NCBI GenBank assembly: GCA_905178155.1
Contig: CAJINV010000004.1
Span: forward strand, 2,378,228 to 2,442,227
Reading direction: 5' to 3'
DNA: 64,000 nucleotides
From: Amoebophrya sp. A120
Taxonomy: Eukaryota > Protista > Dinoflagellata
In this document: in pieces, positions 33,745 through 57,540 of the stretch
Layout: each line of letters starts with the position of its first letter
How positions within the stretch are numbered: position 1 is the first letter of the stretch
Program-made: the position numbers and the translations under genes
The notes under the pieces: model-generated
Told to the model about the DNA's origin: nothing
Database searches by the model: none
What the model saw: only the letters and a program-made list of their open reading frames with translations

Positions 33745-34365
33745 GAGTGATACGCACTCCGCCTTTTTTTTGACACGCAAAGTGACACGCAGAGTGACAC
33801 GCACACTGATACGCACTCGTCAAACACGACCTGTTTCTCGTTTTTGACGAGTGTGTACTGTCAAACCGCTCTGTAAATTGACACGCAGTGAGTGCGTGTC
33901 AGTGCGTGTCACTTTTACAGACCGGAGAGAGGTTTTGGAAAGTTTTGGAAATATCCTTCACCGACGGTATTGTGTGACACGCACTCACTGCGTGTCAAGT
34001 GCGTGTCACTCTTCACGCCTGTATTCTCGCCACCAGCGATTCGGTCGTGCGTGTCACTGCGTGTCACCAGAATATAGGTGCAAAAAGTGACACGCACTGA
34101 CACGCACTAGATGCGTGTCACTACCATACCGTGCAGGAGAGAGACAACGCCTGTCGTCTTTTGGTCTTCCCCGATGGTATACGGTGACACGCACTGAGTG
34201 CGTGTCACTTTTTGCACCTATATTCTGGTGACACGCAGTGACACGCATTGCGGTACGCAAGTGACACGCAGTGTGACACGCACTGCGTGTCACTTGCGTA
34301 TCACTTTGCGTGTCAACTGCGTGTCACTTTTTGGACTCAACTGCGTGTCAACTGCGTGTCACTTT
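33745..34365. repeat. Dense array of GTGACACGCA/TGCGTGTCAC motifs in both orientations, with a perfect 51-bp inverted repeat
   Basis: More than 20 copies of the 10-mer or near matches; 34048-34098 is the exact reverse complement of 34197-34247. Confidence 0.9.
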
Positions 34366-35349: not shown

Positions 35350-38300
35350 ATGGAGACATTATTTTTGCAAAAACTGGCGAATGCCAATGCTTGCGGTGGT
35401 TTATTTATTTACTCCGGAACCAGAACACGAACACCACCAACACAGCAGCAAGACTTTTTTTTCGACGAATCTCCCCTGCTGGAGGACTCTTCCTCATCCC
35501 CTACCGGACTGAAATTCATTCTGCAACAGCACGAAGTGGTAGATCCACAACTTCTTCCTACCTCGGTCGCGCACGATGATGAAGACGCCCTTCTCGCCAA
35601 CAAACCAGATTCCGACGAAGACGAGCCCAGTATCGACATTCCTGCTGCAATCAAGATGTCGTCGTCGAAAGACAGTCGAGGCTCTTCTCTACCGGATGGG
35701 GCTTTAATATCTTCTCCAGAAAGAACAAACCCCACCGATTTCACACTACCAGCCACCGTTCGCAGCATTCTACAAGACACCGTGAACGCCATTGTCGCCC
35801 AGGAGGCGACGCAGTTGCAGCAGCGGGCGCGGTATAAAATAAATGACAGCGCCGGCGCAAGCGCAACAAGTAGAACTTCGGGTGTTGAGCAGGAGTATGT
35901 TACATTACTCGGAGAAGACGTGGCCGCCCTATTGGCGACATCGGCGGCGAGCGGGGCGGTGCAGCATCCGATGGGAGCTGCCGCGGTCGTGGGATCTAGT
36001 GCTTCTTCTGCAGCCAAAGGTGGAGAACTACATCACGCCAATGGTAACAGCAAGCCCAAAGCCATCAATATCGACGGGGAAATCACGCCGATGGGAAAAA
36101 CCTTCGCCGCCCTGCGGGCCAGCAGCCCGAGTCGCAGGGGGCCGGCGGCGGAGAACGGAACTCGTACAACAGAGAATCATGATGCTACGCAAACGCAAAA
36201 GGAACAACTACAACCAGATGCGGCTAGTAGCAAAGCCAACACCTCTGGTCGTGCACAAGATGATCCTACCAGTGCCCTGCATAAGATATCATCCAATGGA
36301 GATTCCAGCCCGAGCCGGCGGTCGCTGGAGCAGGGCAGCAATGTGTATGGGAAGATTGCCCGGGAAAACAAGTTGACCGAAGTGCCCTCGCTGCTTTCCC
36401 GCCTGACCTACGTGCCCCCCGAGCTGTTGGTGGCGCACTGGTATCCTGTGTAAAAGTCTCGTACTCGTAGTAATCGCAATTATGCATTACAAATCTACTT
36501 GTTAAGGTAAATCCTCATTACAAATTCAATTTGTAATGCTGTGCCAATTTGTATTTCGATTTATACTAGTACGATACTTTTGCAATGCATAACTGGGCCC
36601 TGCGCGGCTACCTCAACGAGCGGCAGGGGGAGGTAGATCTGAGCTTCATCGATTACCAGCAGGCCTACCAAGTCCTCGAGGACGTGTACGGGGATCCGCG
36701 AACCGGGGTGAAGAGGGCGGCCACGAATATAAAGTTTTCTGTTGCAGCACAACATACACATGGTGCTAGCAACGGCAACCACCATCAAAACACGACTCTT
36801 ACCCCCAAAAATAAGACGACGACTACCACCGCCACGACGACCTGTGGGCACCCCTTCGGGCTTTTTCTGTGTTGGAAGCTGCAGCTGATTGCGTTTTGCA
36901 AGGCCGACGTGAAGGGAATTGATAAGTTCGGGGACATTTTCCGCGCACTGCGGCGGTACTGGCCGAGCCCCTTCGCGTGCGGCCCGCCGCCGGGGAAACC
37001 GGTGACTGCAGTGCCGATACTTCATTTTCGTAGAAATAATTTTGTTGAGACAACGACAACGTGTACACAAGAAATTTCTACGACAAGAAAAAAAATCTTC
37101 ACCTCCAGGAACTGCAAGTATTTGCCCTCCTCGGTAGGAGCTGCACAGGGGGATAATAATTCCTCGGACAATTTTCTTACGAGTCAACAGCACCGGGGCC
37201 CTTTAGACCCTGCCACGACGGCCCGGTTGCTGCGGTGGAGCGAAAGTGAATACTACTACGCCGTAGCGGAGGAAGAGGCCGTGATTCCCCCCAAGTCGTG
37301 CGTCAGCTCGCCAAATATACCGTGGAAGTATCTGAACGAGCACGATTCTGGCGCAGGAAGCTTTGCAGCTGGTGGAATAAATCAGGCTCGTCCCGAAGAA
37401 CAATTTCAATTAGGGACGAGTGTCGCCAATTTGGAAAATGATAAATCCGTCACGACCGACATCAACAACTTCCACCTCACTGTAGTCAGCCCCGTGCTGG
37501 TTTTCCTGAAACAGCAGATCACGAAGAACCTGGTCCCCTACTCGGAACAGTATTCCACGTCCCTGCTCCGGTTCACGAAACATAGCACCGCTGTGCAGAA
37601 CCGGTTTGGCACCACGTCGCCGGATATCAAATGTAAAAATGTCTGGGTCTGGAAGAGTCATGCTGATTTTGCATGACGCAGAAGGTCTGGCATGGAAGCT
37701 CTAGCATTACAGGTTTCGAGAAGCTTCCGCAATGCCGAATCCGCATGACAAATCCCCCACTTTGGTGACAGAAATTGGGCAGCTTTTGCTACCCATGCAT
37801 GAGATATTTTTCTGTGTTCTGAAATGTGCATCACAAGTTCGGATTCTTCCAGACCCAGACATTTTTACATTTGATACCGGATGATCTCGATCAGGAAGTT
37901 CGCAAGGGGCAAATTTTTGTGTTCGGCAGCAACAAATTTGGGCAGCTGGGGGTCGGCTGCGGGCCGGACCAAGACGTCGAGTGGTCGTCGCGGCCGCTGC
38001 GGTATCAAATGCAAATATGTCTGGGTCTGGAACAAAGCAACTTGTCATGCTAAATCTGAATCATGTAAAAATCTGTGTTGCGTGATAGATTACCAAAAGC
38101 TGTCCGTGTCCACTTTTGACCTAATCGAGAGGCCGTTTCCCATGCAGGATAGGCCTGATAGAACTCTCACAGAATCTGTCATGCTATGTCCTACATACCA
38201 GACCTCATGGGTCATGGAAAACCTGCATGACACGTCGAGCACTCTTCCAGACCCAGACACTGCAATCCATACGCGGCTGATGGCCCTCGCGACACTGAAC

Positions 38301-41098
38301 GTGAAAGCAGACGATGTCGTCACGGCGCATTGCGGCTCTCACACCGTGGTCCGAGCAAGGGATAGCGACGCGCTCTTCTCGTGGGGTGGGAAGCTGGATA
38401 CCAGGAAGACGAAGAGGTACAGCTACTTAGGTGCTGAAGATGGGCCTCGTCGTGATACAGGTACAGCTGAGAATTGTAGTTCAGTGCCGGCATCAAGTTC
38501 TTCTTCTTCGTACAACTTGCACAAATTGATTCTCGGAGGCGCTAGAATTACAACACCAGCCGGCGTCGATGATGGAGCAGTAGTCCCAGCTAGTAGTCGT
38601 GCAACAGCAGGGGCTGCTTCGCTCTCTTCCACGACCACTGGAGATCGCTTGAATACCGCTGCTGCTGATCCGGGAATGTCAATACCAGGATCCCCGACTT
38701 CTACGACGTTTCCGAAGCAACTTGACAATGGGGACCACCTTTCACTAGGGGTGAACGAGGTGCAGCTGAGCATAGTGGAATGTAGCAACACGAGAAGTAC
38801 ACCAGGAGTAGCGGATCAAAACCACAGCAATCCTGGCAGGGTTGTAATGGATGATGAAGATACCTCCACTACTGCTGCTGCTCCCGGGGTTCTTATCTAC
38901 ACGCCACGACAACTTGACATGTTTGAGGTCGTGAAAAATCAGGTTGATGACCCGGAAAACAAGAGTATGACGAAGAAAGACACGACGGAAACCAGCAGAA
39001 CAGCTTCCTCACTCGCCTACCAGCATTCCCGGCGCGCGGTTCCGGACAATTTGAGTAGAAATACGGGCAACGAAAATAAAAACGAGCTGCTGTTCAAGAA
39101 CATACTAAATGCGCGTAGTTTACAAGTGCGCAAAATCGCTACCGGCGCTCACTTCACCGTGTTTGTGACCGTAGAGGGCAATGTGTACGCGCAGGGACTA
39201 CTGGACGAAGACGACCACTGGAGCGGTGAAGACGGAGTCTTAGGGCCGCAAGCTTCGCCAAGGACGTCGTCGAGCAGGGTCGGGACTGGAATAAGGGAAC
39301 AACATCAGAACGAAAATCGCAACCGCCTTGCAAGAACTCTGACGTCCTCCGTGTACCGCATACCAATCGAACACGAGGTTATCGAAGATGGAACTACATT
39401 GAAGCCCCCCTTAGAGCAAAATCAAAGCGAAAAACACCCTGGTGCTTCTCCTCGTTCTATTGGTCGTGCAGCAGTTTGTCCGCAGCCGCCGCTCCGCGTC
39501 CGCGACGTGGCCTGCGGGTCGTTTCACGCGGTGGCGCTGACGACGGACGGCGATTTGTTCTCCTGGGGGCGGGGCGAGGGGGGGCAGCTGGGGTTGCCGT
39601 TAGCGACCTTGGAGAGAGAGTTCGAGCAAACGGGTGACACTTTCGTCAACGTGCCCCGGAAGATATTTTTAAACGTAGAGGCGGAAGAAGATGTGGATGT
39701 CAAGTTTACCCAAGTAGCGTGTGGCGAAGTGCACTGCTGCGCGGTGGACACGAAGGGGCAGGTGTACTCCTGGGGCTGGGGTATCAAATGCAAATATATC
39801 TGGGTCTGGAAACTTGTAATGCTGAGAGACGTAGCACGAGGAGGCCACAAATGATGGCTCAGCATGACAAGTTTCTGAGCTTCTAAGTGTTGCCTATTCT
39901 GCATGGCAAAGCGCGTTTCTGCATCACAGAAAAATAGGGTTTTTGGGTACCGTGCATGGCAGACTTGAGAGTCTTGCTAGCCTAGCACGACAAATCTTGC
40001 ACTTTCCAGACCCAGACATTTTTGCAATTCATATGGGGCGAATTCGGGCAATTGGGGCTGGATCCGGCCGCGTTTCCGTCGGAAGATTCGAAGAGGTGCT
40101 TTACGCCGAAGAAAATTGACGGCGCGAAATACTTTCACGACCGGAAAATCCGGGAAGTGAAGTGCGGCGGCGCGTTCAGTGTGGCGGTGACAGTCTGTTC
40201 GGCGGTCGTGGCAGGATCGCAGAAGGAGGTCGTGACAGGAGCAACGTCTTCGAAGAAAAATATCGACCACGAAAATGAATCTTCGGCCGGCGCGTCTAGC
40301 AGTTCGAAAGCCTCTCAAAGGATCGCTGTAGAAGACGGGCGGGAAGAAGATAATGAGTTACTGACCGGCGATGTCGATTTGGATTTGCGAAGGCATGTGG
40401 AATATCAAATGTAAAAATGTCTGGGTCTGGAAGAGTGCGCGATTTGTCATGCACCTTTTCCATGACCCATCCCCATGAGGTCTGGAATGCAGGACCTAGC
40501 ATGACAGATTCTGTGCGATCTCTCTCATGCCTATCCTGCATGAGAAACTCCCTCCCGACTTGGTCAAAACTGGACGACTTTTGGCAATCGTGCAACACAG
40601 ATTTTTGCATGCTTCAGATTTAGCATGACAAGTTGCATTCTTCCAGACCCAGACATTTTTACATTTGATATGGAAAGTACTACATCCACGACGCAACCAA
40701 CCTCCGTCACGTTTGACGGACTGTACTCCGGCAGCCAGGGCGGGCAGGTGTACGCGTGGGGCACCAACGACCGGGGGCAGGTGGCGCAGCACCCCTCGAA
40801 AGTGTTCGAGCAGCGCACGCCGCACCACTTGCTGGCGCTCGCGCACACGTGCGTGGTCGAGGTGTCCTGCGGGTTGCACCATACGCTTGCGTTGGACGTG
40901 ACCGGGCGCGTGTTCGCCTGGGGTAGCAACTCGCACGGGCAGCTGGGTACCCGGTCCCTGCCGAAAACGCGACAGCCGCCCCCCGTGTTTGCGGGCAGCC
41001 AGGAGTTTGAGTGTGCGCCCCAGCCACTGCAGGCCCTCTCGCGGATTCGCATCTGCAAAGTTGCTGCGGGCAGAGAGCATTCAGTCCTGTTGACGTAA
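35350..41098 (+). CDS. RCC1-repeat (beta-propeller) protein, ~1,510 aa; 5 TIR introns
   Basis: RCC1 motifs GQIFVFGSNKFGQLG, KIATGAHFTVFVTVEGNVY, DVACGSFHAVALTTDGDLFSWGRGEGGQLG, QVACGEVHCCAVDTKGQVYSWGWG|EFGQLG, EVSCGLHHTLALDVTGRVFAWGSNSHGQLG. Span 5,749 minus 1,216 = 4,533 nt. Start codon and extreme 3' end uncertain (possible GT-AG intron 41095-41160). Confidence 0.85.
36442..36591. mobile_element. TIR intron, family E, 150 bp (shortest in window)
   Basis: TATCCTGTGTAAAAGTCTCGTACT...AGTACGATACTTTTGCAATGCATA; direct repeat ACTGG; join VAHW|ALRGYL. Confidence 0.9.
37625..37876. mobile_element. TIR intron, family A, 252 bp
   Basis: Perfect 32-bp TIR TATCAAATGTAAAAATGTCTGGGTCTGGAAGA; direct repeat CCGGA; join TSPD|DLDQEV. 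Confidence 0.95.
38003..38271. mobile_element. TIR intron, family A, 269 bp
   Basis: Family A TIRs, right end slightly eroded; direct repeat TGCGG/CGCGG (4/5); join RPLR|LMALAT. Confidence 0.9.
39782..40033. mobile_element. TIR intron, family A, 252 bp
   Basis: Family A TIRs; direct repeat TGGGG; join rebuilds RCC1 motif YSWGWG|EFGQLG. Confidence 0.95.
40403..40670. mobile_element. TIR intron, family A, 268 bp; reverse-orientation copy of 38003-38271
   Basis: Perfect 32-bp TIR; direct repeat TGGAA; join RHVE|STTSTT. Confidence 0.95.
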
Positions 41099-42103
41099 GA
41101 ACTCTGGAGCAAGAAGGTCCGTTGTTTCTAATACATGATGTTATTTATTTACTTTACCAGCGCCTGAGGCAAAGTCAAAACGTATAATGTAAATGATTCT
41201 ACAGAATAAGCAGATCGACAGACATCGAAGAAAGATTGAAATAGATAGAATCACAGCTCGACATTTGCAAACGACAAATAACCGTCGGCGCATCGGTATT
41301 GAATTCGTATAAAAATGAAATGGGCATAATTCAGCATGAGCTTCAGCATCAGCAAGGGAATAAGAGGAGGCCATGTAGTGCGGGCAAATAAAACTTCCAT
41401 TCGTGTTGTCCGTGAAGATGTCCTCATTGTCACTCGTATCTGCGCAGACGTGGTTCTTCTTTGGGTCCAGCGAAAAACGAGAAGTTGTAGGCCGCTACAA
41501 CTCGTCTACTTGCTAATAAAAACAGAAGCGCAGGTGCGAATGCGATCGATGATAGGATCGAGGATCAGTTGTGCGTTTCGTTTTGGTGCTTCGTTTAAAT
41601 AACTACAACAAGAAGTATTCGCTGCTCTCAATGCTCTGCCGAGGAGACTCAGATTTCTCGTCGTTCCTGATTGCTAGCTTATCTACTTCTCTTTCGAGCT
41701 CGATAGAGGATCTTCCCTTGATCGCACACATAGATCGGTGGTACTTATTGAAACGAAGCAGTTCGAAGATCATCTCCATCTCCTCGATATGTTGGGCTAC
41801 CGTTCTTAGTGTTGTTCGTTCTAGGTAAAATTTTGGGCGGCTCTTCGAAAAAGAGCAAAGATTCATAAACTATTACGAGTGGCTTCTGGCCAGGTCTGGT
41901 TCTTGAGCCAACCATGTATGAACCACGTTTATATACGGTTATTTCGGAATTCGCATGTGACCTGCGGCGGCCACCTAACCTATGCACATTACAACATAAA
42001 TTGCATTTTTTCTTCGTGTAGTGGTCCAGCATTTTTTGAAAGGAATTTTTTAAGGACGATAAAAGAGATTCTCAAGAACTGACTTGTGATTTACGTTATT
42101 ATC

Positions 42104-43686
42104 ATGGACGCCTCCTTGTCGCAGTTTTTCAAGGAGCAGCATGCCTTACCGGACAACCAGCATTGTTTCGAGTGCTTCCAGAAGGACAACTCCTGGGCCT
42201 CGACCATATCCTGAGCAAAAACGCCCCCACCCCATAGTCAAGTAGGGATTCTAGCAACACAAATCTCCAAGTTTTGGGAGCTGGGCATGACAAGTCTTCC
42301 TCTTTATTGTAGTGCTGGTTGGCAAGGGAAGCCGCATGAGAAAGCCATTTTCTCATCCTGTTTACAGCATTGCAAGTTCCAAAGCACGATTGGAAATGTC
42401 TCGTCTCATGGAGCTGCTCATTCCAAACGTTCCTGGTGTCATTGCGAATTTGCATGACAACTATGAATGGGGTGGGGACGTTTTTACATAGGATAGACCA
42501 GTTTCGGCATCTACCTGTGCCACACCTGCTCCGGGGTGCATCGGAGCCTGGGCTCGCACGTCAGTTTCGTTCGCTCCTGCACGATGGACCGGTGGCAGCC
42601 CGAGCACATGCTCCGGATGCGATTCGGCGGAAACAGACTGTTCGACGACTACTTGCAGCAAAACGTGGGCGCGAATTGGCGAATTACGTGGAAAAACGTG
42701 CCCTTGGGGGAGAGGTGGGATGATGATAATGTTTCTGCGCATGGTTTTGTGTTGAATTATTTCAACAATTTATAATAAATTGCGCGATTTCAATTTCTTC
42801 ACGTATAAGCCTGCTTCTTCATTGTTTCCAAGCGGGTCTCGATTTTGCCCTGCAGCAGTTGAACCGGCTTTGAAGGTGAGTTCCGTATCAAATAGGTTTT
42901 GGTAGCGTCAAAAACGATCTTCTACAATCGATAACTTGTTTCGTTGTAGCGCAACTTCTACACTACGACACAAGGTACCAGCACCCAGCCAGTGTGCGTT
43001 TCAAGGAGGAGATGACGGCGCACTTGGCCGCAGCTGCGTCCTCCTCTACAAGTTCTGCAGCTTCGAGTGCTGCTGGCCCGGTAAGGACGACCAGTTCCGC
43101 ATCTGGTTCCTCGTCAACATGGTCTATTGCAGCTCTGCCGCAAGCAAATGCAATTTCGTGTAGTACAACGACTACTGTACAACTAGGAGCTGCTGCTGCA
43201 TCCGCGGCCTCGCAGGGAGGAAATCATCTTGGCCGGCCGCGCATAGTTGGAGATGACAAGGGACCGACATCAAGTAGTGGTTTACATCTTCTTCACCCTA
43301 CAACCGGGCTGCAGTCTGCAACCACGTCTGCGTCAGACACGGATATGAAGTCTTCTTCTTCCTCATCGTCTTCAGCGATGCTTTGTGCTAGTGCAGCATT
43401 TCTCCCGATCGGTCCTACGCAGACAACAAATGCGACACTTTCAGGAGGCGGGACAGCAGGAATGAAGCAAGATGGTGCGCAGCAGGCGATGTTGAACCAT
43501 CAGCCAGTGTACAATGGAATAGATGGAAAAAGTAAGAGTCAACTACATGTAGCTCCTGTAGCACCAAACGGAACAAAAAACGCATCGTCGAACGGGAACA
43601 ATATTAAGCAGGGTCAAGTTGTCGATGTCTGGTCAGATAAACTGTGGGGCATGTGGGACGATGAATTCTGGGAATCACCGACCTAA
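42104..43686 (+). CDS. ADP-ribosylation factor GTPase-activating protein (ArfGAP, ArfGAP1/Gcs1-like), ~342 aa
   Basis: Reconstructed MDASLSQFFKEQHALPDNQHCFECFQKDNSWAST|SFGIYLCHTCSGVHRSLGSHVSFVRSCTMDRW..MRFGGNR gives CX2CX16CX2CX4R; TIR intron 42207-42495 and GT-AG intron 42715-42974; acidic Trp-rich C-terminus WDDEFW. Confidence 0.92.
42207..42495. mobile_element. TIR intron, family D, 289 bp, inside the ArfGAP zinc finger
   Basis: TATCCTGAGCAAAAACGCCCCCACCCCAT...ATGGGGTGGGGACGTTTTTACATAGGATA; direct repeat GACCA. Confidence 0.95.
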
Positions 43687-44524
43687 AAGCTACATGTCGA
43701 GCAAATAAAGTAGTCCACAATTTATTCAGCGATCTGCGAGCACGCCTGCTACCCGCCATGGCCACAAAACTTCTATTTTACCGCCCTGCTGCCGCGATAC
43801 TTGTTTTTAGGATTATGAGTGTTCGTTTTGTCGGCGAAGACGTTAATGAACGAGCAAATTGTTGTAGAGAATTGAAATCAATCATATCAATGTGATGGAT
43901 CGCGAGGATACTAGCTTGTCGGAAAATCTGTGGAGGATGAATGGGGGAATTTTTTGTTTTATGTGCTGCAAGAAATAACCGATCCTTGATGGTGAGAAAA
44001 GAGATCAAAAACGTTAGCGCTTACACCAAGCCAACCCGACGAAAGGAAAGGGCGGGTTACTCAATGCGATCAGCGAATGTGAATTGAAGAGCACACAGCA
44101 AAACTCGTGATGCAATGTATGAGCGCTAAGAATTATGCTGATGCAAAACGATGCACAAGATGATCGGGTGCTTACTTTTTGTTGCTTTTGTTTGTTTCAA
44201 CTCACAATTTGTTGGATGTCGTTGGTGCTTCGGACAAAATGAAAGCTTTCGGTTTAGTTCTGGGAGCATTTATTTTCGGTCAGAAAGCGTCGGCTGGTCT
44301 TTGTTTCTATCCATCGGTCCCCGTCCCGGCCTGAATTTGGCTTTGCTGCTCCTTCGCTATCACGTGTTTTCGCTCTTCTTTGTTGTCGGCCTCGTGTACA
44401 ACTATCTACTGGAAGATCATGTCTTTATATCAGCACCGTCTTTTCTGCTTTATTTTAGCTATCATCGCATCCAGCATTTATCATTTTTGGAGAATTAGTT
44501 GCCGGCGTTACACCCACGAGAAAA

Positions 44525-47500
44525 ATGCCTCGGAATTCTACTGCCTCCAGGGCTGCTCCAACAAATGCAAACATAACTCCTACCACCAGTACCACAAATA
44601 ATTCTTCGCGAAGTAGGCCGGCACGTGAGGACCAAGAACTACATGATCCGCAAAGCGCGACGAAAATTCTGCGCCTGCTCGAGGAGGATCATGACCCCAC
44701 GGCAGATGCGATTCCCACCTTATCCCACGAAAAAAGTGTTTCACTGTAAGGATTTTGCAAGTTTTGCATCACAAGTTTGCTCTGCATGACAGCGAAAATT
44801 TGCAATGCGCGACTTCCAAGGGAAAACACCGCTAAAAAGCCACTGTCTTGCATGTCTAGCAAAACAAACAGAAACACTTCTGAGATACATTTTCTGCATT
44901 ACAAGCTTACAGTGAAACAGGTTTTTCTTGCGATACGCCTACCACGACCAGAACGGCCTACTGTCGCCGACCAGCGGCGGGGTAGTAGTTTCATCGCTGC
45001 ACAGAACAAATTTGGATTTTCTAGAGGAGGAGGAGGAAGATGAAGCAGAACAACACCTACAACACCTACACCTACTTCCAAGGAGCAGCAATAAAGCCAC
45101 GACAACTCGACATCTTCGGGGTGGAGTAGATGGCGTGCAAAATGGTCAAATGGGACGCGGGCGAGGAGATACAGGCTGTAGTACTGAGACGGGCGGGACG
45201 AGTTTTTATCAAGTGGACGCTACTACAACGCCGACGAGGGTCCAGTGGACGCAGGTGGATGTTGAGGTCATCGCAAGACACCACTACAACTACCACTGTC
45301 AGTTGCAAGATACAACCACGGGCGCAGCTGGCTGTATTCAAGAAAATAACGGTTATTTTGATACTTCCACTTCATCGACGCGGTTCTACTCACAGTCTGC
45401 GTATACTACCGATCGCGACAGCAGTTCTTGTACCTTTTCATCTGCGGCCACTCCTGCCGTGGGGCGCGGTTGTATTCAAAATGTTTCGCTTTCGCTTTCA
45501 TCATATTCGCGTGAAAGTCTATTGATCTTTAGCAGGTAGATTGCGGTGTACTACTGACTGGCTCCACCCAGGATATAAGAGTAGAAGTCATGGACGCTTA
45601 TGAGCACCTCCGCGTGTTTCTTCTACGTACTCATTTTGTTCTTCCTGCTGGTGCTTCATGATGCATTTCTCAAATGACCGCCTGGATGAAAGTACACCTA
45701 CTACAAACAGCGTCATCTGTCGCAAGCACGAGCAGCACCCCTGGAGGCGGTCTAGGGGTGAGGAACGTCCTCACCGGTGGCGCGACGACCGTGCATGGTC
45801 CTTCCAGATTCCTGCCGTCGTCGACCTCCGCTTTCGATTTTGCCGCCGAGGACCGGCCGTTGGACTGTTTGCCCCTTTGTCAGCTGGAAAGTGCGCTTCT
45901 CACCACCACGAGAAAGCTGTTTCCCAAATTGCCCCATTTTGTCATTACTGGCGTAGCGGGGGCCGGAAAGCGGTTCGTGCTGCATGAACAAGAGGGGCTT
46001 GTTATCCTATTTAAAAACGTCCCCACCCCATAGTTGTAATGCAAATCTGCATGCTGAAAATGTTTCTCATGCGGAGCCCCATGAGAAGCATTTTCTAATC
46101 GTGTTTTGAAATTTGTCATGCTCCAATCAGCATGGTATGCTAGATCTGTGATGCTGCTGAGCAAGCTCAAACAGCACTACACTACGAATCCAAATTTGTC
46201 ATGCAAAACAGCCAAAACTTGTGGATTTGTCTAACCGATTCCCCAACTTGACTATGGTGTGGGGACGTTTTTACTCAGGATACTTGTTCCGTCAACAAAC
46301 AACAACAATAATAATAAAACTGCTGCGTCCTCTACTACTTCTCACTGTTATTTCCCCTCGTCGGCTACGGCTAGTAGTAGTTCTACCACTGCTAGTGCTC
46401 AACAAACGACCCAAACAAGTGGGCCGCGGACGACGGCGCACAGGATGAATAACAAGAAGACTACTCTAGCATCAGCCGCGCAAAGCAACAACTGTAGTAC
46501 CAAGAACATCCACGTGCCCTTCTCCGTTTTCCTGTCTCTCGTGAAGGAGGCGGAGGCGCTGTGCTTTGCCTTTGTTGACAACTCTGAGGTGGACGATGAT
46601 TATCGAAGCGGTTGTTCGGCACAAGGGCGAGAGGAGGAGGACAGAGCAACTCCTGTGAAGATGAAGATGAAAGTGCAGCTTCCGAGTATCAATCAAGCGG
46701 TGATGCAAACGAAGATGTTGCACGGCGGTGGTACAACTTTTGGTCTCCAGGAGGAGCAGCTGGAGGTGCAGCACCAATCTAATACCTTTGTCTCCCCGGA
46801 CCGAAATTATAAACAACTTCAACAATCTATGGATGTGTCAGGATTGAAATCGACAAAATCGAAAAATTTGTGATGCATAAAATGCAGGGCACTGAAGGCC
46901 TGTATTGGGGAGTAGGCAAATGAGGCCGATTGTAAGCCTGTTTAGGGGTATACAATGTGCTGCCAGAGTAGCATTACAGACGGAGTCTTCTTTGCCCAAA
47001 CAGCATGACAGACTGGATTTGGGTACTCCCGAAATTTGTCATGCGCCACTTGGAAACTGAGGCTCCAACTGACATCGATTTGGTGCATCATCGATTTTGT
47101 CAATTTCGATTCTGACACGTCCATACAATCAAGTGGTCGGCACAGACTTGCACGAGGAGATAGTCTCCAACACAGCGGGAAAACGACACCCAATTTGTTG
47201 TCATCTTCATCCTCGTGTGCAGTGTAAAAGTGTAGAGTATAATCCGACAGCACTAGGAGTGATTGCATTTGCATCACAAATGTGCTCTTCAGCATGACAA
47301 AGGGAGCACTTTGTCAATATGGTGCATTGCCTAAGAAACCAGCTTCGTCACATGCCGGATTCTTGCAAGTTACTACAACTGCTGCGATTTGTCTTGCTTT
47401 GCACAGGATACGCTGAAGAAGCATCTAATCTCCAGCACGAGCAGTACGCCGGGGCGTCGGCGCGGGCTCACGAGTGGGCCGCAGCCCAGATCCTGGATGT

Positions 47501-49971
47501 CCTCTACAGCATCCTCGGGCGCAGCGACGCCGTTCGATGTTGGTCTTCTAGGAGCGGCCCCGACGAATTTCACTACCAGTACGGACGGTGTCTTCCCGGT
47601 GTCGTCCAGTGGTGCAACGCAGCAACTGTTCGCGCGAACGGTAATATCTTCGTCAACAGCAGGAACATTCATCCACCAGAACAAATCGGTTCGCAGTACT
47701 GGATTTTTGCACAATTCCGGCCCGGCCTCCGTGTCACCGTCCAAGGAGCGTAGTGGCCGCCCCCGAACAGATGTTAGTATCGAAAGGGACGACGAGGGAA
47801 ACTTCGTCTTCGTCGCGATCATTCTTTCTTTGGCAGCTGGAAATTATGCATGAAAAAGCTGCATGTGCATGGGATGGCTGGTTGTCATGCCGGAGAACGC
47901 GTATATATAGAGAAATACGTAAAAATACCATTTTTTCTGCTGCACAAATGATTTTTTGCAAAATAGATTCATTATTTTTCGATCTCAATTGTGAAGACGA
48001 AGTGTTTATTTCGTTTGATAGTCCGCGGCCTGGTAAACAGTGCGTCCAAGAAGATTCTGGACTCTTGTACGTCTGGCGGAGGACCAGGACGTGTTGGCTC
48101 TGTAGTCTCCTCGTCTTCCGGTTCCTCGTCTAAAAACACCACTGCCTCGTGCACGCCGCCGGTTGGATATCGCAAGAAAAAGCTGTTGCACTGTAAACTT
48201 GTGATGCATAAAATGGAACACAGAAGTATTTGTCTATGCTACACATGCAAAAAAGTGGATTTTTAGCTGTGTTTCCCTTAGGAAGCCTGCGTGGCAAATG
48301 TTCTCTGTCATGTAGAACGAACTTGTGATGCAAAACGACCTGCAAAATCCTTACAGTGAAACACTTTTGTCGTACGATATTGGAACATCATCGAGTACTA
48401 TGGTTGTGACGGACCACCGGCCGCCAGTGCCAGCAGTACCAACATCTTCTTACACGACCCCCGCTGAAAATAATTGCACCTCATCCACCCGCCCCTACCC
48501 GGCGACACTGTTGCAGCAGCAAGATCTTCATCTCGTACGAGAAAGATACGACCAGCAGACTGCGATGAACTACACGGAAGATTTCGAGCTTGCTGCAACA
48601 ACTGGGTACATGCTCGATGAAACAGAAACAGCAGCAGCCGCAACGAAAAGCCAGCTGAATTTCTGTGGGCGGCTGGTGGTGTCGCGTATCGTACGAAAAA
48701 AGTGTTTCACTGTAAGGATTTTGCAAGTTGTGCATCACAAGTTCGCTACACATATACAAAGAAAACTTGCCATGCAAGGAGCCTAAGGGAAAACACCGCT
48801 GAAAATCCACTGTCTTGCATGTGTAGCAAGACAAACATCGCCGTGATGCATTTTCTGCATTGCAGACTTACAGTGAAACAGTTTTTTCTTGCGATATCGC
48901 GCCACCTCCCGTCAATGGAGGCCCTCAGGGGGCACAAGCAGTCGAAGCCTCGTATGGGGTTCTCAAACGTTACTTTCTCAACTGTTACATGATTTGTCAT
49001 GCAAAATGACCATGACCCGCCAGACGATCAAGCTGCTGCGCATGACAAATTCTGAGAGGGCTAAACAGCACTATAATCCGCACCAAACCTGTAATGCAAG
49101 ACGCGCAAGGTTCTCCCTCTCAACTGTGCTAGTCGTGCATTACAAATTCATGTCGGTTTAGCATTACAAATTCGGTGGTGGCCTGAGCATCTGCGGAAAG
49201 GTGCCCTATGGGTTGCGTTTGTGGTTTCGGTCGGTTTAGCATTACAAATTCATGTAACAGTTGGGAATGTAACGTTTGAGAACGCCATACCTCGGGAGCT
49301 TTCCCCGGGTGATAGTAACAGTAGATGACTGTGATGTCGATAACTTGAAGACGCAAAGATACTTTTGAGAATTCACTTTCCTCAACATGTACAAAGAATT
49401 TGAAGTAGACTTCTAAAATTGGTGACCCGACGAGTAGGACTACATGATAATGCTTCGAGATTTTCAATATACGTGACACTCATTTTTTCTTTTCATCCTG
49501 TACGATAGATTCAACTATGTCGGTTTTTGATTTTGATTTATGCACAACATGTAGGACCAGGCGGAGGCCTGCAGCCCACCAGGAGCACGAGGTGCCCGAT
49601 AGATCTCTTTGCAGGAGGAAGAGCCACAGCAGCAGGTTGCCTTTGACAAGAATTTCAGACGCGCGGTGGTCACGTTCCTACTTTTGATTTTGTACGATGA
49701 AGATGTTGCCTTGGCTCAGCACTACCACTATGTGGACAAAAATTCTGTCGCACGCATATGTGAAAGAGGATATTCTTCTCGACACACCAAAGCCAAAGCG
49801 CTCCCGCTACTTCCCCCGTGGCCTACTTCACGACTGCGGAGACAACTTTTGCACCGCGTCTTCGCACCGAAGAAAAATCATTCGTGTTTAAAGACGTGTC
49901 TGTGTCATGGTTTTTCTGAAGCTGGCATCATCATTCAGGCAAAATCAAATATCGGTGAAAATCAAAAGTAA
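44525..49971 (+). CDS. Hypothetical P-loop protein, possibly a highly divergent RFC small-subunit/AAA+; 8 TIR introns; 3' end uncertain
   Basis: Frame is restored across 8 elements and a probable GT-AG intron (~45469-45710). LPHFVITGVAGAGKR resembles the RFC Walker A region; NFRRAVV in ORF 49609 resembles sensor-2, but its linkage to upstream exons was not resolved. Confidence 0.5.
44721..44935. mobile_element. TIR intron, family F, 215 bp
   Basis: TATCCCACGAAAAAAGTGTTTCACTGTAAG...CTTACAGTGAAACAGGTTTTTCTTGCGATA; direct repeat CACCT/CGCCT; join AIPT|YHDQNG. Confidence 0.9.
46003..46282. mobile_element. TIR intron, family D, 280 bp
   Basis: TATCCTATTTAAAAACGTCCCCAC...GTGGGGACGTTTTTACTCAGGATA; direct repeat CTTGT; join EGLV|PSTNNN. 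Confidence 0.93.
46828..47125. mobile_element. TIR intron, family G, 298 bp
   Basis: TATGGATGTGTCAGGATTGAAATCGACAAAATC...GATTTTGTCAATTTCGATTCTGACACGTCCATA; direct repeat CAATC; join LQQS|SGRHRL. Confidence 0.92.
47216..47410. mobile_element. Degenerate TIR intron, 195 bp
   Basis: TGTGCAGTGTAAAAG...CTTTGCACAGGATA; internal GCATCACAA and GCATGACAA; flanks CCTCG/CGCTG (2/5); removal of element plus 5 nt skips an in-frame stop and joins SSSS|KKHLISS. Confidence 0.65.
47778..48020. mobile_element. Degenerate TIR intron, 243 bp
   Basis: TATCGAAA..ACTTCGTCTTC...GAAGACGAAGT..TTCGTTTGATA; flanks GTTAG/GTCCG (3/5); join TDVS|GLVNSA. Confidence 0.7.
48168..48379. mobile_element. TIR intron, family F, 212 bp; opposite orientation to 44721 and 48687
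   Basis: TATCGCAAGAAAAAGCTGTTGCACTGTAA...TTACAGTGAAACACTTTTGTCGTACGATA; direct repeat TTGGA; join PPVG|TSSSTM. Confidence 0.93.
48687..48896. mobile_element. TIR intron, family F, 210 bp
   Basis: TATCGTACGAAAAAAGTGTTTCACTGTAAG...CTTACAGTGAAACAGTTTTTTCTTGCGATA; direct repeat TCGCG; join VVSR|HLPSME. Confidence 0.93.
48953..49289. mobile_element. TIR intron, singleton family, 337 bp
   Basis: TATGGGGTTCTCAAACGTTACTTTCTCAACTGTTACATGA...TCATGTAACAGTTGGGAATGTAACGTTTGAGAACGCCATA; direct repeat CCTCG; join SKPR|ELSPG. Confidence 0.92.
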
Positions 49972-50826: not shown

Positions 50827-53800
50827 ATGGGAGGTAATAAATTATGGATTGCAAAAGTGTCTGGGTCTGGAAAGTTGGAACTTGTAATGCTGGTCTTGCA
50901 TTTCTGTGAAATCTGTATTGCATGACCAACAAAAGTGGTAGCCTCCCATGTCATACAAAAACGCAGCTTGTCATGCGGAGTTCGTATGAGAAAGCGTACT
51001 GCAAACTTGTCATGCTTTCCTGCATAAGGTAGTGACTTCCTCTTGCACACGACCCAGACATTTTTGCAGTTGATATAAATCCTCGCAGAACAATAACAAT
51101 TTGCCTTCCGGGCGGAACAAGATATCCTCCGTGAAAAACGCCCCAACCTCCCCAATAAAGTTGTCGTGAAAAAAATCTGTAAATCTTCAGGGTAAGCTGA
51201 TCGATTTCTCATCATGTGGCTGCACTAGTGAATCATCAGATTACAATCCTAGTACAACAGGCCCACAGCACGACTTGTCATGCGCAACAGCTAGAGCTTG
51301 TTGCTTTGTGGCGCCCATCTTGACACTGGGATGCTGGGGAGGTTTTCACACAGGATAGAAGATGGCACCAGGCGGGCTTAAGACGATGCTGTGTTTCAGC
51401 TATCAAACAAAAAAAGTTCGTCACGATCTCACTCATGCGCATTTTTGCAATACAAAACTGTCTCCTGTCATGCGTATTAGAAATGCATCACAGTCGAGCT
51501 TATTTCTGCTCGAAGACTCGGATTTCTCTTGTGTGTGTGCCTACAGAACAAGAAGAAGGGAACCTGCAAAGATGCAGGAAAAATTTGTCACGCACCGAAA
51601 CCTGCAAGTTAGTGATAGTGACTACGAACTCCAACTCTTGTCTTTCTATATCAGCGCCGCCACGACTTTTAATGTTATGCCCGGCGCGCACGGGCTTCTG
51701 CGGGTGATGATGGAAACAAAGAAAAAGAAGAGTGCAAGTAGCAACAAATTCGCGGCGGCGCGGGAGAACCAGTATCTGAAAATGCTGGGCGACGTTTCGA
51801 CTTCTGTCCAAGACCTTCGCACGCAACTTTCCCAGCATGCCACGGCTATCGGCAGCATGCAGACGATATGCAACACAAAAACTGTGTGAGTGTAAGTCTG
51901 TGATGCAGAGAATGCAAAACAGTAATATGCTTGTCATTCTGGATGTGCGTCATAGAAGACTACTAACTTTCATACGTGTTTTCACGTACGAGCTGCGCAT
52001 CGCAGGTTTTTTCTGTAATGCACAAGGAATTTGTGATGCTGTTGCTGTTCTTCCTACAAAATTACACTTACACAGTTTTTTTCTTGGATAGTCTAAAGAA
52101 GTGCATCAGCAGAAGCAAATCGACTACTTGACGGGGCTATGCATTGCAAATGTGTCTGGGTCTGGAAGGTTGCAAATTTGTGATGCTGTCTTTGGATTCT
52201 TAGAAAATTTGTGATGCTATTGCTAGGTCATCGATTGCAGGCATCCAGGGTCAAGATTCAAAATATGCATGACAAACCTGGCAATATTCCAGACCCAGAC
52301 ATATTTGCATTTGATACGGGCATTTGAATCAATTGAAGCGCAGCATTGACATATCGCAAGAAAAAACTGTTTCACTGTGAACTTGTGACGCAGGAAATGG
52401 AACACGACACTCTTTGTCTTGCTACACATGCAAGACATAGGATAATTTTCAAGCATATGTTTTCACTTGGAAAGCGCGCATGGCAAAGTTTCGGTGTCAT
52501 GTGTACACAAACTTGCGACGAAGATCTTGTAAAAGAATCACAGTGAAACACGATTTCCCGACGATATTAAGGCCTCGCGTTTGGCGACGCCGAGAAATGC
52601 GCGGCGGAGATCATGAACCCGACGAGCGGAAGCCACTTTGCGGTGTACACCTGGAATCGTGCCCCGCACACCTCTATGGATTGCAAATATGTCTTCTGCG
52701 TCTGGAAGAGTATCAAGTTTGCCTTGCGGTGCAGCTTGTTTTGCATGACCCGGAAGGAGCAAGTCTGGAATGCGAGCCGTAGCGTCTTCACAAGTTTTTG
52801 GAAGGCTCCTCGATGTTGCCTATCCTGTGCATGAGAAATGTCGCCTCGTCCAGGTGACCAAAATTGGGTGGCTTTTGCTACACATGCCATACACATATTT
52901 TTGTTTCCACCTCAAGTAGATGTTGTAACAACATCTAGCGTCAATTTTCACAAACTCAGACTGTTCCAGATTCAGGCACTTTTGCAGTTAATAACGTCCA
53001 GTCCGGAGCCCCTGGAGCCCGGGCTGCCCCTGGAGAAGCGACTGAAAGCAGAGGAGACCAATCTTTGGCACGAGAGATACGACCTTTACCCCGGGGACAC
53101 GAAAACCGTTCGCGCCTTTGACGGGCAGAGTAAACAGTGTGACACGTTTCGGATATTCGTCGTTCGCCAGAACAGCTATCATTTGTAAAAACGTCCCCAC
53201 CCCATAGTCAAGTTGGTAAATCTGCAACACAAATCTCCAAGTTATGGGAGTTTTGCATGACAAGTTTCTATCTGTAGTGTCGTGCTGTTTGGCAAGGGCA
53301 GACGCATGAGAAGGCCAGCTTCTCATCCCGTTTACAGCATTTTTACAAGGTCCAAAACAGGATTGGAAATGCCTCTCATGCAGATCCTCATTACAAAAAC
53401 TAATGTTGCTCTCATTGCGCATTTGCATGACAACTCTGGGGGAGGCAAACGCAAAGGGTGTCGCACTTCTGTTTAGCATGACAACTCTGGGGTGGATACG
53501 TTTTTTCATAGGATAACAGCCGCAACATATTCACGCGCAAGTACAGCGACAAAATGATGCAGCTGGAAAACGGCAAATCCTACGTGATTATGGCGCCCAA
53601 TGAAGTCATGCTCCAGGGTATGGAAGCGTCAGGATGGAAATCGACAAAGTATGGATGAAATAATTTCTCATGCACAAAATCGATAACAGTTTTTAGAGCC
53701 AAACTGTATAGTCGGCACATGACAAATTTTCCCTCCGCCGGAAGCGAATCTGTCACGCTGTTTAGGGCAAGGAGCTCCCCTCTGTCATGCTAGTCAGCAT

Positions 53801-54516
53801 GCAGGCGCAGCCCAATTTTTGACCCTTAGCAGGGCTATGATCTGCCTCCTTTGCATTTTCTGCAATAGAGGCACCCTCTGCGTCGCATTTTATGCATTGC
53901 AAATCATTTTAACTATGGCGATTTCGATTCTGACACGACTCCCATAACGGGCGAAATGGCCCTGCGGCAGCAAACATCGGGAGGAGCCATCACTCCCTCG
54001 ACCGCTGTCCCGTCTACTGTGAGGAAAAATCCCCCCTCCCTATACTGAAAAGGTATATTTCTGAAAATTTGCGATGCTGATTTGTGGCCGCAAATCCTGC
54101 GTCTGCCTCTCTTGCAAGAGGGCAAACTCAGAAACTCTGCCACGATATGCAGGCGATTTGTAATGCTGAAAGGCCTACAGGGCAGACGTCTGCCATGCTA
54201 GGCCCCTACACCAAAGGGCCCCCCCTTAGGCTTACGATCTGCCTGCAGTGCCTTACTGCAACACAAATGTGATTTGTGTACTCAAATACAGCAACACAAA
54301 TTTCGTTTTCGATATGGGGAAGGGGGATTTTTCCTTTTGATACCGTCTGGGAGCGCTTCAGTTGCGTCCGACACGGAAGATGATGCTGCTGCGCCTGATG
54401 CATATCAAGCTCTGCGTGGTGCTACGACTCCATTTGACGATGATCAAATGCCGATGCCGTCTGCTCCGCCGGGTGCTCCAACTCCAATTCCGTCTGGCCC
54501 TCCGGAAAACCGTTAG
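50827..54516 (+). CDS. Hypothetical 329-aa protein split into 11 exons by 10 TIR introns
   Basis: Removing 10 elements plus one 5-mer each (2,700 of 3,690 nt) leaves 990 nt, open from ATG to TAG: MGGNK|SSQNNNNLPSGRNK|MAPGGLKTMLCFS|AATTF...MQT|KEVHQQKQIDYLTG|HLNQLKRSID|SLAFGD...PHTS|SPEPLE...RQNS|RNIF...MLQG|EMALRQ...VPS|GSASV...PPENR. Central coiled-coil-like segment, Pro-rich tail. Confidence 0.82.
50843..51075. mobile_element. TIR intron, family A, 233 bp
   Basis: TATGGATTGCAAAAGTGTCTGGGTC...GACCCAGACATTTTTGCAGTTGATA; direct repeat TAAAT. Confidence 0.9.
51123..51357. mobile_element. TIR intron, family D-like (diverged), 235 bp
   Basis: TATCCTCCGTGAAAAACGCCCCA...TGGGGAGGTTTTCACACAGGATA; direct repeat CAAGA/GAAGA. 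Confidence 0.85.
51401..51650. mobile_element. TIR intron, singleton family, 250 bp; in frame and stop-free
   Basis: TATCAAACAAAAAAAGTTCGTCACGATCTCACT...AGTGATAGTGACTACGAACT..TCTTTCTATA; direct repeat TCAGC; internal TGTCATGC and GCATCACA motifs. Confidence 0.8.
51867..52090. mobile_element. TIR intron, family C, 224 bp
   Basis: TATGCAACACAAAAACTGTGTGAGTGTAA...TTACACTTACACAGTTTTTTTCTTGGATA; flanks GACGA/GTCTA (3/5). Confidence 0.87.
52138..52316. mobile_element. TIR intron, family A, internally deleted, 179 bp
   Basis: TATGCATTGCAAATGTGTCTGGGTCTGGAA...TTCCAGACCCAGACATATTTGCATTTGATA; flanks GGGGC/CGGGC; both ends align to 31801-32062. Confidence 0.9.
52352..52566. mobile_element. TIR intron, family F, 215 bp
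   Basis: TATCGCAAGAAAAAACTGTTTCACTGTG...CACAGTGAAACACGATTTCCCGACGATA; flanks TGACA/TTAAG (2/5), frame still restored. Confidence 0.85.
52675..52993. mobile_element. TIR intron, family A (diverged), 319 bp
   Basis: TATGGATTGCAAATATGTCTTCTGCGTCTGGAA...TTCCAGATTCAGGCACTTTTGCAGTTAATA; flanks ACCTC/ACGTC. Confidence 0.85.
53177..53515. mobile_element. TIR intron, family D, 339 bp (internal 51-bp gain)
   Basis: TATCATTTGTAAAAACGTCCCCACCCC...GGGGTGGATACGTTTTTTCATAGGATA; direct repeat ACAGC; close to 42207-42495. Confidence 0.93.
53619..53946. mobile_element. TIR intron, family G, 328 bp
   Basis: TATGGAAGCGTCAGGATGGAAATCG...CGATTTCGATTCTGACACGACTCCCATA; flanks CAGGG/ACGGG (3/5). Confidence 0.85.
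54015..54342. mobile_element. TIR intron, family B, 328 bp; left terminus diverged (TACTGTG)
   Basis: TACTGTGAGGAAAAATCCCCCCTCCC...GGGGAAGGGGGATTTTTCCTTTTGATA; direct repeat CCGTC. Confidence 0.9.
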
Positions 54517-55062
54517 AAGGCGATGGAGATGCCCAAGACGATTAAACCGAAAAATAAACTCAACCGACGTCGAGGTAAAAAGACAAACTCAACCGTCGAA
54601 GCGCGTGCTTGACGTGACCACATAAAATATGAGTCGGCTCGACACAAATTATGAGGAATTTTTACGCGGCAAAAACTATAACTACGTTGTGACTACTTGA
54701 TAGACGCGCCGTCAGTTCTTTTGCTAGTATACTTTATCATAAGCAAATGCATCACCATCACTCGTCACACTTTCAGAAAAAATAATTTCGTCGATTTCTT
54801 TACGTGATCAGGAACAGGATCACAAGGAATTTTCATCAACAGAGTGTGATGGTGTTGCGAAGAAACGAACACAGTTCAAGCGTAAGTTACCTTTTAAACG
54901 CAAAAAATCTATAAATGAAAATCGAGGAAGATGTCGAGGTACAAGCCCAATCTGCATGATGTGACCACGTAGCGGGTCATCTGACAGAAATATATCGATA
55001 ATTTTTTTGTAACTTCACTAGACTATATTTTGGGTCCAGAAAAAAAAAATAAAATATCACGC

Positions 55063-55115
55063 AAGGAGAAAAGTCAAAGCTGTTAAGGAGAAAAGTCCTG
55101 CCAAGGAGAAAAGTC
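55063..55115. repeat. Three direct copies of AAGGAGAAAAGTC
   Basis: Exact 13-mer at 55063, 55085 and 55103. Confidence 0.85.
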
Positions 55116-57156
55116 CAGCCAAAAGAAAAAAGCCCGAGCGCGCAACAGCTCGCGCGGTGTGGGGACTGGTCCCGCTCTTTTTCGTGAGAAGTGGCATCGG
55201 AGAAAGTCACCGTGACAAATTTCGCCCCTAGCGTTCAAACTTTCTGTAGCGTGTCCCAACCTCCGCACTTGTTAGTCGGGATGATTATGTTGGGGGCGCA
55301 CGAAGTAGGGCAGTTTTTGCGCCCCCGCACCAGTGCAAGGGTTTCCAACCAGGTATGAAAGTAATGGCGCACGGGTGCGCGTTTCGTCGATTTCTTGCGA
55401 CGATACTTTTCAGGCCGCAGGATGTTTGGATCTATTTTCACCAAGAATCTGCGCGATTCATCGGCCCCCTTCTCAATTCCGAGAAGGGGGCGGATGGCGG
55501 ATTCTGGCTGACGTTGCTCCCGGTCCCGCATCCCGAAGTCAAGGGGCTGGCTATCGGAAGCTTTGCTCGGAATGAAGATAGGCCTGGTGGTGGGTTTTGC
55601 GTTGTGTTTGGTTTTGCGCTTTTGCACCGACGCGGGCGGCGATGCCTCGTTGAAGTAAGAAAGGCGCAAACCCAGACCCGGCGCCCGCAAAAAGCGGAAG
55701 CCAGGGAGGGCCGCGAAAAAAATCTCCGCGCGCGCTGCGCGCGCGGAGAGAAGTTCTTGCAGCCGAGCCGCAGGCCGTGCGGGCTTCGAAATGAGCGAAG
55801 GGGGTTCGGCAAACTCAACTCCCCGAATTTGCCACGCGCGCAGCGCCTTCCTTGTGGGGCAACTTCTTCTCCGTGCGGCGCACGCGCGGCCCGGCCCCTC
55901 CCATTCATATGGAACGCCTAAAATTTTTCTCGCGCGCTGCGCGCGCTGGCTGCCCGTCCCCTCTTTGTTTCTCTTGGCCCGTTTTTTGCTCACGCGGGGG
56001 CCTCCTTGCTGCAGGGGACGACAAAAAAGTTGTCGCGCGCAACGCACACAGCCTTGGGCTTCCTTCTTTGGGGGGCAAGCCCGTGCAGAATCCGCTTTGC
56101 GCAAGCGGCCTTTGATGTCCGTGCTTGTGTGGTTGGAGGGCGCCTGGTATTTTTTCCGCGTACCAGGCACGCAGCCTAGCCTCGTCGCCTTGGGGGGGGG
56201 AGGGTCTGAAAGATCTCTTTCGCACACCGTGCACGCGGAAGCGCACCGAGCTGGCGCAATTTCCCCGGTGCGTCTATTTTCTCTGCGTGTGGGGGGAGCC
56301 TGCTCTGATTTGCTGCTAGCCCGGCGGAGATGGGGCAGCATGGCGTGCGCGCGGTGGTGCTGACTCTGCTTGCGCGGCACGGCAAAGGCGACGCGCGCGC
56401 GGCCCGGAATTTTCTCCGGACCCGCGGCCCTGTTCCCAAAACCGCAAAAAAAAACTTCTTCGCGCGCTGCCGCGCGCGCGTGCGAATTCCATTGGCCCGC
56501 TTGCCTGCGCCGCCGGCGAAGGCCACAAGCCGTACGCCCCCCCTGCTGTCCTAGGCCGTGTGGGCGTTGCTGAGCGATTTCGTTGTGGGGCCTTTGCCGG
56601 GCTGCAGCGCGTGGCACATGGGGTACCGGCTACCCGAGGGAGGCGCCGTGTGTTGCCCTAGGGTGGTACTGGGGGCGTGCCGCGAGTCCTTGGCGCGGCG
56701 CTTTTTTTTCGCTTTCTTACTGTCTTTTTTCCCGCAGTGCTGTGTTTAGCATAGTGTATTCTGGCTAAGGATACCCTGGGAACAGCTCACGCGGTGCCAA
56801 CATAAGTCCCAGGCTGGCTGTGGAGGTGTTTTTGGTCTCGCGCAGAGAATGGCTTGGTGCAGGACGCTGGGCGTTTTTCCCGTCGCGCAGTGTTTAGCAT
56901 AGGGTATTCTGGCTACCCTGGGCGCGGCTTGCCCAGGATAGGTGCGGGTCTGTAGGTCGATTTTTGCCTCTGAATGTAGCGGGAGGTCGCTGAGTGTAGC
57001 GTAGGGAGAGGCCCCGTAGCAGGGGCCTGTGCCCGGAGACCGTTTTTTTTGTGCCCTGAACGCATTCGCCCCTCGTTTTCTCTTTAAGAAGTCCGTTTTC
57101 CCATCATCTTCTTCACGATGTCGGGGCTTCTCGAGATTTCCTTCAGAAGGGGACAT

Positions 57157-57390
57157 TTGGGAAATCCTTTCTCCTGGGCTTTTCGCATGATTTCCTTTGG
57201 GAAATCCCTTCTCCTGGGCTTTCCGCATGATTTCCTTTGGGAAATCCCTTCTCCTGGGCTTTCCGCGTGATTTCCTTTGGGAAATCCCTTCTCCTGGGTT
57301 TTCCGCGTGATTTCCTTTGGGAAATGCCTTCTCCTGGGCTTTCCGCATAATTTCTTTTAGGAAATCGCTCGCCCCTGGGCTTTCCGCGTT
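57157..57390. repeat. 40-bp tandem repeat (~6 copies) with internal hairpin
   Basis: Unit GATTTCCTTTGGGAAATCCCTTCTCCTGGGCTTTCCGCRT; GATTTCC/GGAAATC is self-complementary. Confidence 0.92.
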
Positions 57391-57540
57391 ATAGGAAATC
57401 TCTTCCTTAGGAGCCGGCCGCTGATCTCCGCGTCAACACGTACTGGAAGCAAGCTCCTTCTGATCTCCACTGCGAAACAGAGCGGAGACGAGCTCGGTGG
57501 CTAGGGTCTGGGTGGGATAGGGCCTGTCATAAGTATCGCG

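Follow-up and report, generated by a model that had tools for sequence, protein, structure and literature searches.

The 64-kb window analyzed in the present study (64,000 nt of contig CAJINV010000004.1 from Amoebophrya sp. A120) contains a gene for a protein with an ArfGAP domain, the zinc finger of which is divided in the DNA by a non-coding element flanked by two copies of a 5-nt repeat. The features of this locus are as follows, in window coordinates.

42104..42205, plus strand: ArfGAP exon 1, with its ATG at 42104 and the first Cys pair (Pfam match, identity to protein P0001); the end is that of the proposed register, in which 4 bases of the left repeat are kept
42202..42206, plus strand: left direct repeat GACCA, 5 nt, a likely target-site duplication
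42206..42499, plus strand: putative ArfGAP intron of 294 nt with the ends AT..CC, placed by the fixed-register rule; the same mRNA results from any of six registers
42207..42495, no strand assigned: non-coding element of 289 nt, starting TATCCT and ending AGGATA, with TAT...ATA terminal inverted repeats of approximately 29 nt (arms 42207-42235 and 42467-42495, 86% complementary)
42496..42500, plus strand: right direct repeat GACCA, 5 nt
42500..42714, plus strand: ArfGAP exon 2, with the second Cys pair and Arg (Pfam ArfGap positions 31-88)
42715..42974, plus strand: canonical GT-AG intron of 260 nt in the same gene, skipped in an RNA-like contig
42975..43686, plus strand: ArfGAP exon 3, a low-complexity tail up to the stop codon (identity to P0001)

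When the element plus five bases and the GT-AG intron were removed, the spliced model was identical to the public Amoebophrya sp. A120 protein P0001 at 342 of 342 residues. A sequence-only reading of this DNA had proposed that the loss of element 42207-42495 together with one GACCA rebuilds the finger, and the deletion of these 294 nt indeed keeps the frame and restores C-X2-C-X16-C-X2-C-X4-R, with the spacer of 16 residues also being present in all six of the other ArfGAP homologs returned. Its prediction that keeping both repeat copies or neither disrupts the frame was borne out by deletions of 289 and 299 nt, each of which causes a frameshift in the ArfGAP ORF, and the unspliced frame contains stops. 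In the comparison with the Pfam model that this reading had recommended, exon 1 matched positions 2-29 and exon 2 positions 31-88, and the whole protein scored 100.1 bits against PF01412 (cut-off 28.7), covering profile positions 2-91 of 117; the protein shares the intact finger with this domain and differs from it in its low-complexity tail and in the partial coverage of the profile. Among five in-frame removals scored on a profile of the six homologs, that of 294 nt was the best with 92.5 bits, and the others ranged between 82.9 and 88.3 bits. As judged from these comparisons, the ArfGAP gene reads as intact only once the element and one repeat copy are gone, and this part of the earlier interpretation stands, as does the claim of an exact net removal, which agrees with the identity to P0001 and with the loss of a neighboring element plus 5 nt in an RCC1-repeat gene from an RNA-like contig.

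The left end of the ArfGAP element reads TATCCTGAGC, followed by AAAAA, which fits the pattern of TAT, seven variable bases, and a run of A. Ends of this form, together with direct repeats of 3-5 nt and a mean length of 240 nt, characterize the A120 introners in the available portions of a previous study (Farhat et al., 2021; PMC7789003). Because the spliced model is identical to an A120 protein, the ArfGAP element is an A120 introner as described there (PMC7789003), already known and already annotated, which the sequence-only reading had not recognized. Three proteins encoded in the window were 100% identical to NCBI proteins labeled Amoebophrya sp. A120, and the element has the TAT end, a direct repeat within 3-5 nt, membership in a repeated family, non-GT-AG ends, and the host of these introners. 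The likeness to the accessible descriptions extends to TAT inverted ends, the A-run, the direct repeat, a length of approximately 250 nt, the presence of many families, and a location within coding exons (PMC7789003); we found no difference in kind, except that a uniform 5-nt repeat and a single register are proposed here, whereas variable sites are described in that source. With its inverted ends, duplication of constant length, and lack of coding capacity, the element also has the features of a MITE, or non-autonomous TIR DNA transposon.

Relatives of the ArfGAP element are present at 30745, 31121, 46003 (in the opposite orientation), and 53177, and its interior is 68-80% identical to those of 30745, 53177, and 46003. 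The depth over element bins in DNA-like contigs was at least 100-fold that of exons, which indicates a repeated family. The element at 46003, reversed relative to that at 42207, is likewise removed in the annotated protein P0009. The GACCA repeat also flanks an element of another family at 21507-21758, and no overall target preference was evident.

At least 37 elements were detected in the window, with a total of 9,456 bp, lengths of 150-339 nt, and a median of 252 nt. A perfect 5-nt repeat flanks 26 of the 37, in a list that was partly built with the repeat criterion and that includes two members recognized from annotated junctions; the unbiased control for the association with repeats is the count of TAT...ATA inverted pairs, 23 of 71 of which carried a direct repeat of at least 4 nt in the window versus 0 in each of five shuffles (9-17 pairs each). 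Left ends were TAT in 35 elements and right ends ATA in all 37. The sole departures, TGT and TAC in elements 47216 and 54015, are both at 5' ends, and are few and partly shaped by the scan. On the plus strand, none of the 37 elements offered GT/GC..AG ends, whichever of the six registers was applied, which sets them apart from U2-type introns; a G at +1 was present in 11 and a terminal AG in four, with neither being favored. The ends were paired in the predicted folds of 33 of the 37 elements, including the ArfGAP element (z = -2.73), and little end pairing was predicted for 47778 (0/12) and 53619 (3/12). The 5' and 3' inverted ends showed no apparent asymmetry of the kind expected from selection on splice signals, as compared across 16 positions of the 37 elements.

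The RCC1-repeat gene (window 36000-41100) harbors five elements, including the following two.

39782..40033, no strand assigned: element of 252 nt with a TGGGG repeat (comparison of ORFs)
40403..40670, no strand assigned: element of 268 nt with a TGGAA repeat; the element and 5 nt are missing from an RNA-like contig that joins 40397 to 40671

The sequence-only reading had assigned the same exact rule to the first of these, which lies in an RCC1 motif. Removal of the element plus 5 nt spaces WG and GQ by four residues, the number found in the other three motifs of that ORF, and this part of the claim holds; removal of the element plus 2 nt is also in frame, and the frame does not single out one length at this site.

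Several other parts of the window were of note. Of the ten elements in a 329-codon gene of an unknown family at 50827-54516 (P0008), five have repeat copies that have diverged. A 150-nt inverted repeat (34073-34222) is surrounded by arrays of 11-12 nt units that run in both orientations (33771-34361); its flanks are inverted and not direct, unlike those of introners. An unpaired element-like end is located at 54735, and 40-nt and 21-nt tandem arrays at 57156-57387 and 57712-57895; the region 54735-58000 is strongly AT-skewed and has low-complexity frames that overlap, and no transposase-like frame was recognized in it by eye. Unpaired motifs resembling right ends at 17344, 28483, and 60569, for which no partner was found within 1.5 kb, possibly represent degenerate or longer elements. 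Outside the window, a 30-nt element-end motif gave 0 matches in viral contigs, and P0001 found no related ArfGAP locus among metagenome contigs; one of 25 stretches passed, and this sole match was dismissed as uninformative because it was confined to the low-complexity tail. From two raw RNA runs, only 37 and 15 reads matched the window, all of them partially and on element ends (38039-38085 and from 46197) and none on exons, a pattern that points to a divergent genome with related element ends.

Regarding the level at which the element is removed, which the sequence-only reading had not separated, contigs from one run (depth 18-29) cross borders between exons and elements unbroken, both ArfGAP borders (40647-42279 and 42470-44750) among them. 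This run was taken as DNA because its depth stays close to 27 across exons, spacers, and the GT-AG intron alike. In contigs that we regard as RNA-like, the RNA nature of which is a guess and not on record, 40397 is joined to 40671 with the loss of 273 nt (268+5) at element 40403, and the GT-AG intron 42715-42974 is also skipped. Another such contig spans 42032-42201 followed by 72 further letters; the left GACCA begins immediately after 42201, and a contig end at this base corresponds in placement to the left side of the joint at 40403 and is consistent with the removal of 294 nt. The contig end, as an indirect indication, and the identity to P0001 are consistent with the absence of the ArfGAP element from RNA, the loss of an element being seen at the neighbor 40403 in an RNA-like contig. 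Taken together, the element is very probably a known introner that is removed at the RNA level.

Three other explanations for the joined form were considered. Programmed excision from the DNA of an expressing stage, in the manner of the internal eliminated sequences of ciliates and with one repeat left behind, would yield the same protein, and we take the terminal TA, inverted ends, and single retained repeat to resemble the products of such excision; moreover, the DNA side rests on one DNA-like run among the joints listed. However, both ArfGAP borders are unbroken in that run at single-copy depth, such that an excised form could not have been common in it (contigs drop rare variants, and the continuity of the borders speaks to the common DNA form), and among the joints listed, skipped forms occurred only in contigs that also lack the GT-AG intron, which renders this explanation improbable. 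The gene may instead be a pseudogene whose joined cDNA arose when reverse transcriptase switched templates between the direct repeats across the hairpin; direct repeats with a hairpin are reportedly the setting of this artefact. This proposal hardly accounts for the intact residues and spacing of the finger, for the frames of 499-999 codons that the deletion of element plus 5 nt opens on both sides of eight junctions (19000-26500 and 36000-41100; this longest-ORF test does not inform on junctions that lie in a short exon or close to the end of a gene, 42207 included), for the ten removals required by one 329-codon gene, or for the loss of the same length at sites where only 2-3 of the 5 repeat bases match. 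The need for removal in vivo at the protein level answers the concern about such an artefact, which we regard as highly improbable. The splicing of an ordinary GC-AG intron of 300 nt at 42197-42496 is just as hard to credit: the pair of sites is present and the frame is kept, but the resulting spacer has 14 residues versus 16 in all six homologs, its score is the lowest of the five in-frame options (82.9 versus 92.5 bits on the homolog profile), and the product differs from P0001.

The removal of an introner from RNA leaves the position of the cut to be considered. The sequence-only reading had held that the ArfGAP site fixes the rule to the nucleotide, and this claim was not sustained: six deletion starts (42202-42207) give an identical product, so the perfect GACCA repeat, with six equivalent registers, fixes the length of the removal but not the cut. 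Diverged repeat copies are more informative, as in the following elements.

47216..47410, no strand assigned: degenerate element with the diverged repeat CCTCG / CGCTG; permits 4 or 5 left bases
47778..48020, no strand assigned: degenerate element with the diverged repeat GTTAG / GTCCG; permits 4 or 5 left bases; recognized after the annotated junction had been seen
52352..52566, no strand assigned: element with the diverged repeat TGACA / TTAAG; the annotated protein permits 4 left bases only

Three annotated A120 proteins, which are conceptual translations of transcript-guided gene models and not reads, were compared with the window across 15 element junctions, six of which were informative; the elements 39782 and 38003 of the RCC1-repeat gene lie outside the 15. 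With k denoting how many bases of the left repeat copy are kept, k was at least 1 at 51123, at least 2 at 51867 and 53619, 4 or 5 at 47216 and 47778, and exactly 4 at 52352, while three diverged repeats (31801, 52138, and 52675) were silent at the protein level. The only register common to all 15 junctions was 4; k = 5 is excluded by 52352 alone, and k = 0 is allowed by none of the six informative sites. P0008 (329 aa, ten elements) was reproduced exactly with k = 4 at all ten, and the other five uniform registers failed; once P0008 had pointed to k = 4, P0009 was selected as a query to examine 47216, and 47778 was recognized later. From these protein comparisons, we consider it probable that the register is fixed at 4+1, such that the left exon retains four bases of the repeat and the intron takes the form N-TAT...ATA-NNNN.

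A register of k = 4 predicts that every intron starts with N-T, the U at +2 being invariant, and that its terminal dinucleotide may be of any sequence. The predominant non-canonical motifs of A120 in Table S4 of PMC7789003, as far as that source is available, are GT-AC, CT-AG, AT-AG, GT-CG, GT-AA, CT-AC, AT-AT, AT-AC, and TT-AG; all nine have T at +2 (NT-NN), and all nine A25 motifs are TT-NN. This table fits k = 4, although it is not fully independent because its authors may have placed junctions inside perfect repeats by their own convention. A literature search, mostly beyond the reach of which lay subscription papers, returned no statement of a fixed register for Amoebophrya, and the register may already be visible in Fig. 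3 and S19-S25 of PMC7789003.

The overall explanation that we propose, and find reasonably likely, is that a TIR introner inserts as a transposon and is removed from pre-mRNA with five repeat bases at a fixed cut. Insertion would proceed as that of a non-autonomous DNA transposon by cut-and-paste, in which a DDE transposase or integrase makes a 5-bp staggered cut and five bases are duplicated. The pre-mRNA would then be cut one base upstream of TAT and four bases downstream of ATA, with the element and five repeat bases being lost in the register exon-NNNN / N-U-A-U ... A-U-A-N-N-N-N / exon. Both cuts would be defined by the inverted ends, with the 3' cut being measured from the end of the element; since the element plus 5 nt is still lost where as many as 3 of the 5 bases are mismatched between the repeat copies, these ends appear to set the cut rather than the repeat. 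The ends are symmetric, and either orientation would therefore be tolerated. An ordinary spliceosomal donor is GU-A at +1 to +3. A modified spliceosome may be the catalyst, which would keep the U at +2 and nearly always the A at +3 and dispense with the G at +1 and the terminal AG.

Concerning the source of the elements, no autonomous partner was found within the 64-kb window, and the accessible text of PMC7789003 reports that no transposase was found in A120. The available part of PMC12130899 mentions an inverted-repeat family of A120 whose ORFs resemble Copia/Gypsy, and this family is a possible source.

Two alternatives to a fixed cut made by a spliceosome need to be weighed. The length of the removal may be fixed at element plus 5 nt with a cut that floats within the repeat, as the available text of PMC7789003 implies by describing A120 splice sites as variable relative to the hairpin, with no clear splice signature; if registers were random and independent, the six informative sites would agree on one value with a probability of 0.077. 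However, alignment ambiguity at perfect repeats alone yields the spread reported there, NT-NN dominates its Table S4 (PMC7789003), and register 4 is allowed by all six informative sites and register 0 by none, which makes a floating cut rather doubtful. The main rival as to the catalyst, because ends pair in 33 of 37 folds and euglenids offer a precedent, is a hairpin-reading endonuclease with a ligase, or a different route independent of the spliceosome such as that proposed for euglenids, which would cut the stem one base outside it on the 5' side and four on the 3' side. The fold of the ArfGAP element itself and the lack of preference for a G at +1 (11/37) or a terminal AG (4/37) are in its favor, as are reports, in the portions of the sources available, that U1 snRNA was not found in A120 (PMC7789003) and that the ends of euglenid introns pair asymmetrically and the introns are released as circles, with no lariat (PMC11282704). 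In addition, the predicted pairing buries the U at +2 in a stem in most elements (33/37), which a spliceosome would need to unwind, and this counts against spliceosomal catalysis. On the other side, the weakly paired elements 47778 and 53619 still lose element plus 5 nt in annotated proteins, and the U at +2 conserved in both strains fits a donor-like signal (Table S4 of PMC7789003, as available). We view the endonuclease route as possible but unlikely, and lean slightly toward spliceosomal catalysis because both strains retain the U at +2, the accessible text reports almost all spliceosome proteins and U2, U4, U5, and U6, though not U1 snRNA, for A120 (PMC7789003), two weakly paired elements are exactly removed, and Fritillaria provides a precedent.

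Both of the GT-AG introns that were checked (42715-42974 and 45472-45710) contain CTAC-N-AC with its A 7-8 nt from the 3' end, and under the proposed register, the first A of the terminal ATA in the element is 7 nt from the 3' end. A short fixed branch distance common to GT-AG introns and elements is possible, based on these two introns (n = 2).

Similar elements have been described in other eukaryotes, as far as the accessible portions of the following sources extend. The introners of Micromonas and Aureococcus are also non-autonomous inverted-repeat elements with a target duplication that are removed from RNA with one copy (PMC11282704); they retain a GT/GC and an AG, the element supplying one of the two and the duplication the other, whereas none of the 37 elements does so here in any register. 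The introns of Fritillaria borealis are likewise MITE-derived with inverted ends and are spliced by an altered U2 spliceosome, but have AG-AC/AG-AT as the preferred ends, with U1 retained and U2AF duplicated, in contrast to the proposed NT-NN ends and the U1 snRNA reported as not found here (PMC11282704; bioRxiv 2025.08.15.670264). The nonconventional introns of euglenids share non-canonical ends, end-pairing inverted repeats with an asymmetric overhang, and duplication-like junction repeats, and differ in having CAG/CTG at +4..+6 and -8..-6 and circular products, versus TAT/ATA at +2..+4 and -7..-5 in the present elements (PMC11282704).

The ArfGAP element and its junction are themselves a confirmation of a described and annotated feature, and the more useful outcome of the present study is the method, in which diverged repeat copies record the position of the cut. 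The rule that may underlie these introns, toward which we incline with some reserve, is that the 5' cut falls one base before TAT, keeping only the U at +2, and the 3' cut four bases past ATA regardless of the sequence there, such that the ends of the transposon would serve as a ruler without a G at +1, an AG, or apparently U1 snRNA, and an insertion in either orientation would be harmless at once. If the 4+1 register holds genome-wide, the recognition of tens of thousands of non-GT-AG introns would be reduced to a precise geometry, and published intron ends could be re-registered.
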